This document shows, one piece after another, positions 1,787 to 63,835 of a DNA stretch of 64,000 nt. The position numbers were made by a program, and so were the translations under genes. Positions within the stretch are counted from its first letter, which is position 1; each line of letters opens with the position of its first letter. Under the pieces are notes generated by a model, which was not told the DNA's origin, searched no databases, and saw only the letters and a list, made by a program, of their open reading frames with translations. This DNA comes from a phage, in the NCBI GenBank assembly GCA_023551395.1, contig GCA_023551395.1_3945.1, one strand, 5' to 3'.

Positions 1787-1809
1787 AAGACCAAATTAGG
1801 TCTTTTTAG
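1787..1809 (+). terminator. intrinsic terminator-like hairpin within tRNA array
   Basis: Stem AAGACC/GGTCTT with loop AAATTA followed by TTTTT. Confidence 0.45.
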
Positions 1810-1886
1810 AGGGCTTCTAAGGTTATTACAGCTTGTTGTGGAACCTTGTTGCTTAGGTTCTTAGAAGTTCTCTAAAAAGATTTAAT

Positions 1887-10941: not shown

Positions 10942-12051
10942 ATGTTGACTAATTCTGAAAAAAGCAGATTTTTCCTTGCTGACCTGACTGGTGAAGTCCA
11001 GTCTATCCCAAACACTTATGGGTATATTTCCAACTTAGGTCTATTCCGTTCAGCACCAATCACCCAAACTACTTTCCTTATGGACTTGACTGATTGGGAT
11101 GTTAGCTTGCTTGATGCGGTAGACCGTGATAGCCGTAAAGCAGAGACTAGCGCACCTGAGCGTGTTCGTCAAATCAGCTTCCCAATGATGTACTTCAAAG
11201 AAGTTGAAAGCATTACTCCTGATGAGATTCAGGGTGTACGTCAGCCAGGCACTGCAAACGAACTGACTACTGAAGCTGTAGTACGTGCCAAGAAGCTGAT
11301 GAAGATTCGTACCAAGTTCGATATTACTCGTGAGTTCCTGTTTATGCAAGCTCTGAAGGGTAAAGTTGTTGATGCTCGTGGTACTCTGTACGCTGACCTG
11401 TACAAGCAGTTTGACGTTGAGAAGAAGACTGTTTACTTCGACCTTGACAACCCTAATGCTGACATTGACGCTTCTATTGAAGAACTGCGTATGCACATGG
11501 AAGACGAAGCTAAGACTGGCACTGTAATCAACGGTGAAGAAATTCACGTAGTTGTTGACCGTGTATTCTTCAGCAAACTGGTTAAGCATCCTAAGATTCG
11601 TGACGCTTATCTTGCACAGCAGACTCCACTTGCTTGGCAACAGATTACTGGTTCTCTGAGAACTGGTGGTACTGACGGCGTTCAGGCTCATATGAACACC
11701 TTCTACTACGGTGGTGTTAAGTTTGTCCAGTACAACGGTAAGTTCAAAGACAAGCGTGGTAAAGTTCACACTCTGGTTAGCATTGATGGTGTTACTCAGG
11801 ATGGAACTGTAGGTGTAGGACATGCTTTCCCTAACGTTTCTATGCTGGGTGAAGCAAACAACATCTTCGAAGTGGCATATGGCCCATGTCCTAAGATGGG
11901 TTATGCGAATACACTTGGTCAGGAACTATACGTATTCGAATACGAAAAAGACCGTGACGAAGGTATCGACTTTGAAGCTCACTCTTACATGCTGCCATAC
12001 TGTACTCGTCCTCAGTTGCTGGTAGATGTTCGTTCTGACGCTAAAGACTAA
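10942..12051 (+). CDS. major capsid protein
   Basis: 369-aa ORF after protease/scaffold, GGAG ribosome-binding site, codon usage typical of highly expressed gene; assignment by order and size. Confidence 0.65.
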   Translation: MLTNSEKSRFFLADLTGEVQSIPNTYGYISNLGLFRSAPITQTTFLMDLTDWDVSLLDAVDRDSRKAETSAPERVRQISFPMMYFKEVESITPDEIQGVRQPGTANELTTEAVVRAKKLMKIRTKFDITREFLFMQALKGKVVDARGTLYADLYKQFDVEKKTVYFDLDNPNADIDASIEELRMHMEDEAKTGTVINGEEIHVVVDRVFFSKLVKHPKIRDAYLAQQTPLAWQQITGSLRTGGTDGVQAHMNTFYYGGVKFVQYNGKFKDKRGKVHTLVSIDGVTQDGTVGVGHAFPNVSMLGEANNIFEVAYGPCPKMGYANTLGQELYVFEYEKDRDEGIDFEAHSYMLPYCTRPQLLVDVRSDAKD

Positions 12052-25760: not shown

Positions 25761-28139
25761 ATGGCAGATTACAAGTTGAGTGAATTAAACTCAATCGATA
25801 CAATCCGTTCAGATGACCTTCTTCATGTCAGAGTTAAAAAGAGACCTGAAATGCTGGGTGATGAAGACCGTCGAATGACCTATCAAGACTTCTTAGCATC
25901 TTTTAAACTCGAAAGATTTGTTCAGATTGCTGGTAGCACTATGACGGGTGACTTAGGTATTGTCAAACTTCTTTATGGTGGTAAGGCAGTATTTGACCCA
26001 ACAGGCTCTTCTGAGATTAATATTGGGGACGTTTTAAAGACTTTTAAAATTAACTCAAACGGTCTTAAGCTAACTATTGCAGACGCTTCAAGGTCGGCAA
26101 CTGTTTATCACACTCTGAATAAACCAAGTCCTAATGAACTTGGAATGAGAACTAATGAAGAGAATGATGCAAGATACTCAAGATTAGCTGCAAATAACAT
26201 CTTTACCTTCCAACAGGTTATTCAAGCAAATGGCGAAGCTATTAGACTAAAAAACTCTTCTGAGAACTCCCCGTTGTATATTAGAGGTCAGGATAGCACT
26301 GGTGCTAATAGGTGGTATGTAGGTAATGGTTCAGGGAATGATGATGTTATTATCCACAACTACAAGACAGGTTGTGAAGTTAATCTGTCTAGTGTTGCTG
26401 CTATTAGCAAGACACTAAGAATCACTGGTCAAGTTCAACCATCTGACTTCTCTAACTTAGATGCTAGATATTTTACTCAGACAGTAGCTAATCAGAGATT
26501 TGCACAGTTAAATGCTAGTAATGTTCTTTATGGTGCTAATACATTTAAAAAAGATGTTGTATTTAACTCAGATATCCCTGTCATTCTTAAGAGTCTAACA
26601 GCTAACAAACCATTATATATTCTAGGTAGAGATGACCAAAACTCCAACTTGTGGTTTGTTGGTAAAGGTGGTTCGGGAACAGAGATTAAATTCTATAACT
26701 ATGTGAGTGATACGGTTTTAGAGTTGTCTGAGACGGCAAGATTTAATAAAACTTTGAAGATTACTGGTCAAGTTCAACCATCTGATTGGACTAACATTGA
26801 CTCTAGATATATTCCAGCAGCAACTTTGAGTAATCTTGCTAAGATTAATGTGGCTAACACTTTTACAAATGTGCAGACTATTGTATCTAACAATGAAGGT
26901 CTAGTATTGAGGAACTTAACACAGGGTCAGCCACAATATATCCGTGGTGTTGATACTGCGAATGTATCTAGGTGGTGGGTAGGTGTAGGTGGTACAAATT
27001 CTACTGATGTAGCCTTAAACAACAGCTCATCTGGGACTCAAATTACCCTTATGACTTCAGCGATTAAGGCTAATAAGAATCTAACCATTACTGGTCAAGT
27101 TCAACCTTCTGATTGGTCTAACTTAGATGCTAGATATTTTGTTAAAACTCAGTTATTAAACCAATCCTTAATGACTGTCTCTGTAGATAACCTTGAAAAC
27201 CCTTCAGGTTTTAATCTTGGATATTCAGGTTTTGTCAGAAACAATGCGGTTACTAGTGGACTGAAAGAATTGGCAATCCATGTTGCGCACTCTAATAAGA
27301 CTGCTGCACATGCAAGAGGAATCTCTTTTGTGTATGGCTCAAATGGACTGGCAACATTTACCTATGCCTATGACAAAAATGGTGACTATGCCGGAGAAGC
27401 ACAGATTTATACAACTGATTTTAAACCAACCCCTTCAGATATTGGTGCATACACTAAAGCTGAAACTGACCAGAAGATTGCACAAGCTGTAAGCGACTCC
27501 ACAGACCTTAACAAAATCTATCCAGTGGGTATTGTAACGTGGTTTAACAGTAATGTTGACCCTAATACGGCACTTCCTGGTCTAACTTGGACGTACCTGA
27601 ACAATGGTGTTGGTAGAACTATCAGAATTGCAGCAGCAAACGGTTCAGATGTTGCTACAACTGGTGGTTCAGATTCTGTGACGTTAGCTGTTGGTAACTT
27701 ACCATCACACACCCATAGTTTCTCTGCTACCACTTCATCTTTTGATTATGGTACGAAGAACACTAATAGCACTGGTGGTCATACTCACTCTGTAAGTGGT
27801 ACAACAAGTGCTGCTGGTAACCACGCTCACCACTTAGGTCTGCTATTGGTTAATGGTGGTGATGCTCAGTACGGATATACCACTATTGGTAACAATAAGA
27901 CAAGAACTCTTGACTGGCTTGACAGAACTGATAACAAATTCCCTAACACTAACACAACTGGTAACCATACACACACATGGTCTGGTACTACAAGTAACAC
28001 TGGTGCTCACACCCACTCTGTAGGTATCGGTGCTCACACTCATACAGTTAGTGGTAACACTGGTGGTACAGGTTCTGGTTCAGCATTTAGTGTTACTAAC
28101 CAGTTCTACAAGTTAATGGCTTGGGTAAGAACTGCTTAA
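25761..28139 (+). CDS. tail fibre protein (long) with three internal ~95-aa repeats and HxH C-terminal domain
   Basis: 792 aa; three copies of ...ITGQVQPSD(F/W)(S/T)N(L/I)D(A/S)RY...; C-terminal [27 protein letters not shown] motifs shared with 24527-25714. Confidence 0.8.
26270..27130. repeat. three tandem ~285-bp coding repeats within long tail-fibre gene
   Basis: DNA segments containing ACTGGTCAAGTTCAACC(A/T)TCTGA recur at ~26424, ~26764 and ~27091. Confidence 0.75.
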
Positions 28140-31414: not shown

Positions 31415-31714
31415 TTAATCTGCCAGCCTTAAATTAAAATTAACACCAAATTTTTCGCATACTTCCAACATATACTCAAGGGAGACATTACCAGTGAGGT
31501 GGATTATGTTGGATACACGAGCCTGAGAGATACCACAAATTTTAGCAACTTGCTCTTGAGAAAGACCTCTGGATTTAATCTCTCTCTTAAAACGATGTGC
31601 AACGAAGTCTCTCATTTCGTCTACATCCATTGGACAAATATAACTCTCCATTTCAGCCTCTCTATCAGCCTCCCAATCATCTTGTGGAGCATAAGGGTCA
31701 AAAACCTCATTCAT
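31415..31714 (-). CDS. helix-turn-helix DNA-binding protein (XRE-like)
   Basis: HTH-like segment LSQEQVAKICGISQARVSNIIH; start moved to internal ATG (MNEVFDP) to limit overlap with upstream ORF. Confidence 0.5.
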   Translation of the reverse strand: MNEVFDPYAPQDDWEADREAEMESYICPMDVDEMRDFVAHRFKREIKSRGLSQEQVAKICGISQARVSNIIHLTGNVSLEYMLEVCEKFGVNFNLRLAD

Positions 31715-31920: not shown

Positions 31921-32304
31921 TCAAATACCTGTGCAGCTTCTGTTTTCTAAGAAATACTCAACACCATACATAGCTTTTTGCATCAAATCTTCTTTAAACT
32001 GGATACGATGATTGAGCATAGCCTGTACATCAATATCATCAGGGTGCTTCTCTTTAATATTTGCAGATTGCAGGAAATACTCTGCAAGAACACGATACTG
32101 ATAGTCAGTTACCTTATCAGTCATCTCTGTTAAAGACTCTTCAGAGATTGGTTTAAGTAGTTCACCTTTAGATAGGGCAACACCTTTAACAATCTGGCAA
32201 GTGTCTTCTGGAACACCTGATAAGTCCACATTTGGAAGTTCTGTTGCATTGACTGGTAAATTCATTGCCATAACCATTGCAGCAGCTAATAAAATCTTTT
32301 TCAT
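31921..32304 (-). CDS. secreted/periplasmic protein with cleavable signal peptide
   Basis: 127 aa; N-terminus MKKILLAAAMVMAMNLPVNA is a typical Sec signal peptide. Confidence 0.5.
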   Translation of the reverse strand: MKKILLAAAMVMAMNLPVNATELPNVDLSGVPEDTCQIVKGVALSKGELLKPISEESLTEMTDKVTDYQYRVLAEYFLQSANIKEKHPDDIDVQAMLNHRIQFKEDLMQKAMYGVEYFLENRSCTGI

Positions 32305-32348
32305 AATGACCTCAAAGTTATATTAAATTTTGTATTACATTGAGTATA

Positions 32349-32395
32349 AAAATAAGCTATAACACCTGACTTGTCAACAGATTTTATAGCTTATT
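32349..32395 (-). promoter_or_regulatory. sigma70-like promoter (TTGACA, 17 bp, TATTTT) bracketed by a 12-bp perfect inverted repeat
   Basis: Minus-strand -35 at 32372-32377; arms AATAAGCTATAA (32351-32362) and TTATAGCTTATT (32384-32395) are exact reverse complements with a 21-bp spacer. Confidence 0.5.
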
Positions 32396-32410
32396 TGGCA
32401 GATTTTTTAT

Positions 32411-32680
32411 AAGGCTACTGCCATCCTTCCATACCTTACCTTACCACACCTAACCATACCTAACCATACCTAACCAAACTACACCATACAATACCTTGTT
32501 AAAAGACCCTTTTAAAGACCTTTTAAAAAGGTAAGTCTCATTTTAATGTAGCTGAGACTAACTACCCATACCAGACCCTACCTTACCAAACCAGACCTCA
32601 CCCTACCCCACCATACCGTATACTACCTCATTAAAAGACCCTCTTAAAGACCTTTTAAAAAGGAGCCTCCGAAGAGGCTA
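32411..32680. repeat. intergenic repeat element copy A (degenerate CCNWACC-type pyrimidine tracts plus conserved hairpin core)
   Basis: GGCTACTGCCATCC, runs of CCATACC/TAACC/AGACC units, and a core TTAAAGACCTTTTAAAAAGG + hairpin AGTCTCA...TGAGACT shared with 33811-34095. Confidence 0.75.
32655..32680 (-). terminator. intrinsic terminator (minus strand)
   Basis: On minus strand: stem AGCCTC/GAGGCT with TTCG loop then TTTTT; directly downstream of gene 32691-33131. Confidence 0.6.
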
Positions 32681-32690
32681 CCTAGTCAAC

Positions 32691-33131
32691 TTAGAAAGGT
32701 TTTCTGCGTTGCTTGTTAATGTTAGCTTTCATAGCAACTAAGTGGTTTTGCTGTTCAATTAGTCGTGAACGTTCTTGGTGGCTAAGTGCCATAGTGTTCA
32801 CATTCTCAATTGCTTGAGTAGCTTGCTTTAAAGCACGACCAATTTTACCAGACATTTTACGTTTTGCAATAGTTGCTTGATGTTTAGGCTCAACCACACG
32901 ATAACCAACACCCATTGAAGCAACCAGATAAATCTTCTCTTCTTTAAGAAGCTTTTCAATAAACTTCTCAAGTCGGTTTAGTCGTGTAAGTGCATAAGCC
33001 TTCATTTCATCTTCGTACTTAACAATGTCACCTTGATAAGTTGGCTTCACAATACCTAAGAAGGTATCCATCTCAGAATGTGATACAGTGTCACCGTAAC
33101 TAAACTTTGCTGCTAATGCTTTTGTATTCAT
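32691..33131 (-). CDS. hypothetical protein (cassette gene 2)
   Basis: 146-aa ORF between the two repeat elements, no recognisable motif. Confidence 0.45.
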   Translation of the reverse strand: MNTKALAAKFSYGDTVSHSEMDTFLGIVKPTYQGDIVKYEDEMKAYALTRLNRLEKFIEKLLKEEKIYLVASMGVGYRVVEPKHQATIAKRKMSGKIGRALKQATQAIENVNTMALSHQERSRLIEQQNHLVAMKANINKQRRKPF

Positions 33132-33133
33132 AA

Positions 33134-33739
<606 letters not shown>

Positions 33740-33810
33740 TTAGTTGATTGTTAAGTTGTTTGTAAAGAACCCTCAACAGAAGACTCTTTAGAAACTTGGT
33801 AGATTTTTAA

Positions 33811-34095
33811 CGTGGCTACTACCATCCACCCATACCATACCGAACCTTACCTTACCAAACCAGACCGCGCCTTACCAAACCAGACCAAACATTACTTTAC
33901 CCTACCTCATTAAAAAACCCTCTTAAAGACCTTTTAAAAAGGTAAGTCTCATTTTAATGTAGATGAGACTAACTACCCATACTGTACCGCACCTGACCCG
34001 ACCTGACCAGACCTAGCATTACCGTGCCACACCGTACCGAACAGAACACTACCATACCTCACATCACTTAAAAACCCTCTTAGAAGACTCTTAAG
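33811..34095. repeat. intergenic repeat element copy B
   Basis: GGCTACTACCATCC, pyrimidine-rich CC(N)ACC tracts, and a ~60-bp core almost identical to copy A (one mismatch in the hairpin loop). Confidence 0.75.
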
Positions 34096-34315
34096 TGATG
34101 CTGGTGAGTACCCGTTGGTTTATGCTGCTCAGTATACTCACCAAATTTTCTATGTCAACAACTTTTTATAAAAAAGTTCTGATAGCTATATGTGTCACGA
34201 AACAAAAGATTGTAAACAAGACACCCATTGCAAAAGATGTGTCCAAAAGCTTACTTGCAACGTATGACAATACAAAGACAACCAGTATAAACAGAATGAC
34301 TGTACTGAACATAGT

Positions 34316-63760: not shown

Positions 63761-63790
63761 TTGACAAGGGGCTTCAAAGCCCCTTAAAAT
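63761..63790 (+). promoter_or_regulatory. sigma70-like promoter whose spacer is a GC hairpin
   Basis: TTGACA at 63761-63766, 17-18-bp spacer containing GGGGCT/AGCCCC hairpin, then TAAAAT; upstream of 63836 gene. Confidence 0.4.
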
Positions 63791-63835
63791 GGCATCACAA
63801 AATGATTTATTAACTAACAAGAGAGAGTAATAAGA

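Follow-up and report, generated by a model that had tools for sequence, protein, structure and literature searches.

A conserved palindrome around the -35 element of a predicted promoter in Felix O1-like phages, possibly part of a composite stem-loop/promoter cassette

The -35 element of a predicted σ70-like promoter in a Felix O1-like phage is enclosed by a long inverted repeat, which is non-random and conserved among related phages. Our preferred reading, which we hold tentatively, is that this palindrome provides the stem-loop part of a composite stem-loop/promoter cassette located at a mosaic junction, functionally similar to the promoter-early stem-loops (PeSLs) of T4-type phages (Arbiol et al. 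2010, PMC2839356; Comeau et al. 2014, PMC4122927). The cassette is a defined 90-bp element and not a new kind of system. Its promoter is known from the annotation of phages AYO145A and ASO1B, and the palindrome is newly described here.

The analysis was performed on a stretch of 64,000 nucleotides, referred to as the window, which comes from a Felix O1-like phage (Felixounavirus). The region of the palindrome matches more than 230 such genomes at 84-99% identity, including those of TH10, KhF3, wV8 and AYO145A. On the minus strand, the genes follow each other in the order DNA ligase, small membrane protein, two-gene module, an intergenic region of 386 bp, and the operon that the promoter would drive. 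The earlier calls of a protein with a signal-like N-terminus and of a Pfam HTH_3 protein within this operon hold. The top PDB match of the HTH protein, 8vd6 ("CAP REPEAT"), which we take to be a designed repeat protein, was discarded as uninformative, as it consists of four weak repeated stretches, none of which reaches E <0.001 alone. The features used throughout this work are the following.

33131-32691 and 33736-33134, minus strand: two-gene module for proteins of 146 aa and 200 aa, which belong to PHROGs 5926 and 4652 without an assigned function.
32492-32690, minus strand: upstream intergenic array, with a terminator (32664-32679), an X hairpin (32624-32665), a (GGTNN)n array, a second terminator (32531-32562) and a second X hairpin (32492-32533).
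32343-32433, minus strand: conservation island of about 90 bp, about -88 to -1, hypervariable on both sides, 28 distinct sequences.
32397-32422, minus strand: upstream hairpin GGCAG-N16-CTGCC; its paralogue at 33798-33823 is GGTAG...CTACC, a compensated change.
32350-32396, minus strand: full 47-bp imperfect palindrome.
32384-32396, minus strand: 5' (upstream) arm AAATAAGCTATAA, about -54 to -42, A-rich, at the position of an UP element, invariant in all relatives.
32372-32377, minus strand: -35 hexamer TTGACA in the palindrome loop, found by consensus scan, promoter annotated in relatives.
32350-32362, minus strand: 3' (downstream) arm TTATAGCTTATTT, about -20 to -8, in the spacer and overlapping the -10 element, invariant in all relatives.
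32349-32354, minus strand: predicted -10 element TATTTT after a 17-bp spacer, invariant; the T-tract behind the hairpin begins with it.
32343-32348, minus strand: TATACT, 23 bp after the -35 element, last block of the conserved island.
32320-32335, minus strand: AT-rich pseudo-palindrome ATACAAAATTTAATAT in the 5' leader, its position kept in all promoter variants of the subfamily.
31921-32304, minus strand: operon gene 1, 127 aa, signal-like N-terminus, PHROG 4332, function unassigned.
31415-31714, minus strand: operon gene 3, XRE/Cro-type HTH protein of 99 aa, Pfam HTH_3.

The original prediction described a perfect repeat of 12 bp around the -35 element, and a check of the sequence confirmed that AATAAGCTATAA (32351-32362) and TTATAGCTTATT (32384-32395) are exact reverse complements separated by 21 bp. 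The exact repeat is larger than first noted, at 13 bp on each side (32350-32362 and 32384-32396), and it extends imperfectly to arms of 19 nt (32350-32368 and 32378-32396) that are complementary at 17 of 19 positions and leave a gap of 9 nt, inside which TTGACA is located (minus-strand 32377-32372). Of the two remaining positions, one is an A.G mismatch in the sense RNA and the other pairs as G.U. Only one perfect inverted repeat of at least 13 bp with a loop of at most 40 nt is present in the window, compared to a mean of 0.1 in dinucleotide shuffles, and arms matching at 17 or more of 19 positions were obtained in none of 40 shuffles.

The search for more half-site copies in the genome, proposed with the original prediction, was carried out in the window and in the remaining 27.5 kb of AYO145A, and neither the half-site nor the inner motif was found there above chance. 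No Rfam family matched across 32200-34300, and to our knowledge the palindrome bears no resemblance to the consensus sites of LexA, CRP/FNR, IHF, DnaA or sigma54. We found no description of the palindrome in the literature; the papers on Felix O1 (PMC3185647) and wV8 are silent on it, the latter without any mention of promoters or repeats, and no transcriptome or map of start sites was found for the Felix O1-like group. In the GenBank record of KhF3, the intergenic region of the palindrome is covered by a 519-bp overlap between the two ends of the record (1-519 of segment L166 and 705-1217 of segment L174). A true terminal repeat was considered in this case and rejected: with an identity of only 96% between the copies and Ns in their sequence, the overlap is probably one of assembly.

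The predicted promoter, TTGACA-17-TATTTT with A-rich sequence upstream, matches the consensus, and a promoter has already been annotated by consensus at the same site in AYO145A and ASO1B. A σ70-like promoter, as originally proposed, is thus plausible: the -35 hexamer is perfect, TATTTT lies at 17 bp, and the conserved island ends at the predicted start. The sequence TATACT was also considered as the true -10 element, which is unlikely given its distance of 23 bp from the -35 element and its variants TATACC and TACACT in metagenome relatives. Since TATTTT is invariant while TATACT varies, we argue that the former is the -10 element, and that TATACT is here probably the discriminator. In the homologous promoter of Mordin-type phages, TATACT is the -10 element, and AAAGTTGTTGACA-N17-TATACT serves as the promoter of this operon where the palindrome is lacking. 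Every promoter variant has TATACT together with the leader pseudo-palindrome ATAyAAAATTTnATAT.

In order to describe the conservation of this region, homologous sequences were collected from IMG/VR, GenBank phages and metagenomes. Among 28 distinct versions of a 560-bp region, the island 32433-32343 shows only a few changes of low frequency, and it is nearly invariant in about 35 distinct relatives, ending at the predicted start site. The flanks are hypervariable, namely the (GGTNN)n repeats on the upstream side and the 5' leader on the downstream side. The 13-bp arms show no variation in any of the relatives, with about 60 loci examined, and accordingly no compensatory changes either. The rare polymorphisms are located in the loop (ASO1B), at the symmetric position 15 of the inner stem, or in the upstream hairpin. 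Position 15 carries G instead of A in 8 loci, a change that gives G.U pairing in the sense RNA, and C instead of T in 2. A scan of IMG/VR with a 15-nt core pattern returned mostly unrelated coding matches, and the cassette itself was found only in Ounavirinae.

Across the island, phiSUSP1 (genus Suspvirus) and SflM_004 have 100% identity to the window, and their first downstream protein shares only 34% and 42% identity, respectively, with that of the window. The two upstream genes of these phages have 91-92% DNA identity to those of the window, compared to about 72-75% beyond TATACT, and the cassette is therefore located at a mosaic junction. In LinBro the cassette is kept and the two upstream genes are absent, and in Mordin, EcSzw-2 and ESh22 both the two-gene module and the cassette are missing, so that the cassette is found at boundaries of insertion, deletion or replacement between related phages. 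From these sequence comparisons, the invariant cassette appears to mark a boundary where phages have exchanged gene modules. The two-gene module (32691-33736) is present or absent among related phages and is bordered by repeated units of terminator, X hairpin and (GGTNN)n array; this arrangement suggests that it is gained or lost by recombination between those repeats.

A symmetry without a function of its own could arise at such a site, as an A-rich UP element and a T-rich spacer and -10 element are naturally complementary in part and would be fixed by selection for a strong promoter. A-rich and T-rich repeats do bracket the -35 element at other consensus promoters, namely ATAAAGT/ACTTTAT at 994 (plus strand) of the window, and TAAAAA/TTTTTA at 11748 and TATTTT/AAAATA at 26326 of AYO145A; moreover, conservation spans the whole promoter and does not single out the arms. 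Against this explanation, which we consider quite unlikely, a match of 13 out of 13 with the non-trivial core GCTATAA, extended to 17 out of 19, was never produced by the shuffles. Additionally, the sequence of a promoter spacer is normally free to vary, and here the spacer is invariant and mirrors the upstream arm.

The original prediction interpreted the repeat as the operator of a dimeric regulator, suggesting autoregulation or a temporal switch. In the version with autoregulation, the XRE-type HTH protein (31415-31714) would bind the palindrome as a dimer and regulate its own promoter. Its gene is located in the operon driven by that promoter, and small XRE/Cro proteins commonly autoregulate via dyad-symmetric sites. 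The palindrome shares with the Cro/CI/XRE operators, such as lambda OR/OL, a dyad that lies over core promoter elements and the presence of an XRE-type HTH gene in the operon. Small HTH dimers normally have half-sites spaced by about one helical turn, and operators of this type measure 14-20 bp, are usually found as several copies and show co-variation with the repressor. In contrast, the palindrome is a single copy with a dyad of 47 bp and exact half-sites 33 bp apart from centre to centre, a geometry that is not typical of a dimeric operator and is atypical for a dimer of a 99-aa HTH protein.

Moreover, the palindrome is uncoupled from the HTH sequence among the seven phages compared, and neither co-occurrence nor co-variation of the site with the regulator was found. 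The HTH proteins of phiSUSP1, which has the palindrome, and EcSzw-2, which has a different promoter and no palindrome, differ at one residue, located outside the HTH. Those of SflM_004 (with the palindrome) and Mordin (without) are near-identical across the HTH, and the recognition helix ISQ[A/S]RVSNI is common to all seven. A further point against binding of the HTH protein to the palindrome is provided by the leader pseudo-palindrome, which is kept in position in phiSUSP1, Mordin, EcSzw-2 and ESh22 despite a diverged surrounding leader. As judged from its sequence, this element, which has no second copy in the window, is a better candidate site for the conserved HTH autoregulator than the 47-bp palindrome. 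We therefore regard autoregulation through the palindrome as very unlikely. In summary, a plausible promoter and the non-random, conserved repeat of the original operator proposal are supported, and its operator geometry and the link to the HTH protein are not supported.

Alternatively, the palindrome could be the operator of some other DNA-binding protein, of phage or host origin, and not of the neighbouring HTH protein. A multimer would bind both 13-bp arms, three helical turns apart on one face of the DNA, and by occluding the UP element and the -10 element it would turn the promoter off, or on, at a defined stage of infection. Several observations are in agreement with such a site. Neither arm varies at all among about 35 distinct sequences whose flanks are hypervariable, and both cover promoter elements, which suits a repressor. 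The island (about -88 to -1) has its end at the predicted start, which would be expected if it is recognised as DNA, whereas the neighbouring hairpins of the X family, unlike the palindrome arms, vary with compensation. Furthermore, the temporal control of Felix O1 has been stated to be unknown (PMC3185647). However, the half-site has no second copy in the genome, no candidate protein for binding of the arms is at hand, a half-site spacing of 33 bp in a dyad of 47 bp is unusual, and a promoter in which every base must pair would be invariant too. On balance, we regard an operator for such another protein as unlikely but as a serious rival of the reading that we prefer. We consider it rather doubtful that the palindrome is the single genomic target of a multimeric phage or host protein that clamps the UP element and the -10 element, and a repressor site for some protein, the HTH protein included, is possible, though on the unlikely side.

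In the composite stem-loop/promoter cassette that we favour, the stretch of about 90 bp would, as DNA, act as a strong promoter for host RNA polymerase, from which transcription of the signal-peptide/HTH operon would resume downstream of the terminator array at the end of the upstream two-gene module. These bases would at the same time be read as an A-tract (AAATAA), the 5' arm, the loop, the 3' arm and a T-tract (TTATTTTTAT), with the A-rich arm at the position of the UP element, the loop providing the -35 element, the 3' arm the spacer and the T-tract the -10 element. Given this layout, a transcript arriving from upstream would form a hairpin of 19 bp with a U-run behind it, which may attenuate or end read-through and thereby insulate the promoter. 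The sequence would be frozen because each base would serve both promoter and hairpin. We infer promoter activity, hairpin formation in vivo and attenuation from these sequence features. The composite cassette and a protein-binding site are not mutually exclusive.

The predicted fold of the sense RNA has a free energy of -17.8 kcal/mol (z -4.1), compared to -14.1 for the antisense RNA; the sense fold is the more stable because one position pairs as G.U in the sense RNA only. After the GC-containing core of the stem, U is found at 8 of 10 bases. The location of the polymorphisms in the loop or the imperfect inner stem is also in favour of this reading. With 4 G-C pairs in 18, the stem is AT-rich; it also has one mismatch and a loop of 9 nt, so that no more than weak intrinsic termination would be expected. 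The palindrome was not called by a simple terminator consensus scan, and in ASO1B, annotated with TransTermHP and WebGeSTer, the neighbouring hairpin is annotated and the palindrome is not. Two canonical terminators are located upstream, so that little read-through may reach it. The lack of compensatory variation in the arms, together with an island that ends at the predicted start, points to a constraint on DNA rather than on RNA. Further points against the composite reading are that repeats of at least 6 bp bracketing -35-like hexamers showed no enrichment genome-wide, with 11 observed and 8.6 in shuffles, that the palindrome is missed by a covariance model of the neighbouring X hairpins, and that each genome has only one such cassette.

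PeSLs consist of stem-loops located between the -35 and -10 elements or overlapping the -10 element, they have terminator activity, and recombination takes place at the cassette; promoter and terminator functions as well as cassette-mediated exchange of modules were shown experimentally (PMC2839356, PMC4122927). The position of the palindrome at a mosaic junction is in keeping with such a role in recombination. The element described here shares with PeSLs a conserved intergenic cassette of about 100 bp, a strong σ70-like promoter matching the consensus with AT-rich sequence upstream, a stem-loop (in this case with a 19-bp stem) that overlaps the promoter, and a location at boundaries of gene insertion, deletion or replacement. 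Whereas the stems of PeSLs are GC-rich (GGGG...CCCC) and occur in many near-identical copies per genome, the stem of the palindrome is AT-rich and encloses the -35 element. It is present as one copy plus one partial paralogue that shares only about 35 bp of the upstream part, and its phage belongs to a different subfamily, Ounavirinae.

A closer counterpart was observed within the same phage group. The Felix O1 hairpin t42/t43 has been listed as a bidirectional terminator and not as a promoter (PMC3185647, Table 2). In AYO145A (26227-26258) it reads AAAGGGTAT[TGACAATGTGTTTG]ATACCCTTT followed by TAATAT, with the consensus TTGACA in the loop and a -10 element in the T-tract at 17 bp, immediately ahead of the tRNA cluster. 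The order of A-tract, 5' arm, loop with the -35 element, 3' arm within the spacer, and T-tract with the -10 element is the same as in the palindrome. The stem of t42/t43 is short and contains GC (GGGTAT/ATACCC), and it was called by terminator software; in contrast, that of the palindrome is longer (13-19 bp), AT-rich and uncalled. The region 26227-26265 of AYO145A, which corresponds to t42/t43, thus appears to be a composite terminator/promoter, and its promoter is unannotated in genome records.

The intergenic regions 32400-32690 and 33740-34160 are built from repeated units of a terminator hairpin, an X hairpin and a (GGTNN)n array. The X hairpins are a family of sense-strand RNA elements of about 40 nt with a 17-bp stem rich in G.U and a loop of 3-4 nt; since these stems are rich in G.U, they would pair only in the sense RNA. 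Copies are found on the minus strand at 34060-34102, 33903-33944, 33756-33798, 32624-32665 and 32492-32533, with a weak copy on the plus strand at 1190-1218. Among 20 variants, 5 of the 17 stem pairs show compensatory double changes, and no Rfam match was found for the family. The X hairpins follow terminators or promoters between genes, one of them adjoining tRNA-Arg, and they could be elements of RNA processing or stability. The only other long inverted repeat of the window besides the palindrome, at 1802-1880 (plus strand; 17/19 arms, loop of about 40 nt), is located just upstream of tRNA-Leu in the tRNA cluster and carries the X-like motif GTCTTTTTAGAGGGC.

The upstream hairpin element GGATGGCAGTAGCC...CTGCC has a paralogue at 33827-33798, after which an X hairpin follows that overlaps a weaker promoter. 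The element GGATGGYAGTAGCC...CTRCC is followed by the palindrome here and by a different hairpin of 16 bp in the paralogous cassette at 33756-33798. In a contig from IMG/VR (2579779076_000012, L154), a canonical GC-rich terminator with T6 occupies the position of the palindrome, and this positional homology favours the composite reading. Membership of the palindrome in the X-hairpin family was considered and rejected. A covariance model of the X hairpins (R1) recovered five copies with E-values from 1e-16 to 8.5e-11, and it missed 32350-32396 even at E up to 10; the palindrome was therefore kept out of the family, with which it shares only its position relative to the upstream hairpin.

The (GGTNN)n arrays of 5-nt units are located on the minus (coding) strand at 32432-32489, 32566-32617, 33830-33895 and 33991-34014, with 5-14 units each. 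They are C-rich and G-poor on the plus strand, are hypervariable between otherwise near-identical phages, and would give RNA with regularly spaced GG tracts; in wV8 and tootiki they are partly annotated, as "repeat_region" only. An ORF-less unit in contig L154 (350-600) consists of TTGACG-N17-TATAAT, about 60 nt, a (GGTNN)n array, the hairpin GGATGGTAGTAGCC...CTACC and a canonical terminator, and looks like a gene for a non-coding RNA of about 170-200 nt. The same layout, from a promoter to a terminator near 33950-33985, can be observed in the window at 34158-33945 on the minus strand.

Inverted repeats are also associated with other promoters. In those of the type AAAGTTGTTGACA-N16/17-TATACT (34100-34165, minus strand, in the window, and upstream of the signal-peptide gene in other phages), a repeat reaches from the spacer to about +30, and its arms vary and are still complementary (TGGTGAGTA, CCTGACGGGT, CCGGTAGTT, CTAGTGGGT). 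At 34158 (minus strand) it spans the -10 element, and its arms differ among the window, Mordin, EcSzw-2 and ESh22 with complementarity kept. As the 5' arm of this class lies upstream of the expected start, a hairpin would be possible only in read-through RNA or in DNA. Additionally, at 63761-63795 (plus strand) the sequence TTGACA-AGGGGCTTCAAAGCCCCT-TAAAAT contains a GC-rich GGGGCT/AGCCCC hairpin that fills the spacer exactly, which is the commonest arrangement of the PeSLs of T4-type phages.

The cassette is among the most conserved non-coding stretches of the group, identical across genera despite 34% identity of the gene behind it. Felix O1-like phages are widely used in the typing of Salmonella and E. 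coli, in biocontrol and in therapy, and it has been stated to be unknown how Felix O1 transcription passes its many terminators and how it is timed (PMC3185647). If the palindrome is protein-bound, it would provide an entry point to the temporal programme; a clamping protein, if it exists, would time the expression of the nucleotide-metabolism/HTH operon and give a first means of approaching the temporal switch in the Felix O1-like group. If the cassette is a composite terminator/promoter, as we tentatively favour, it would show how these phages insulate and restart their transcription units and where modules are swapped, and it would extend the PeSL idea beyond T4-type phages.
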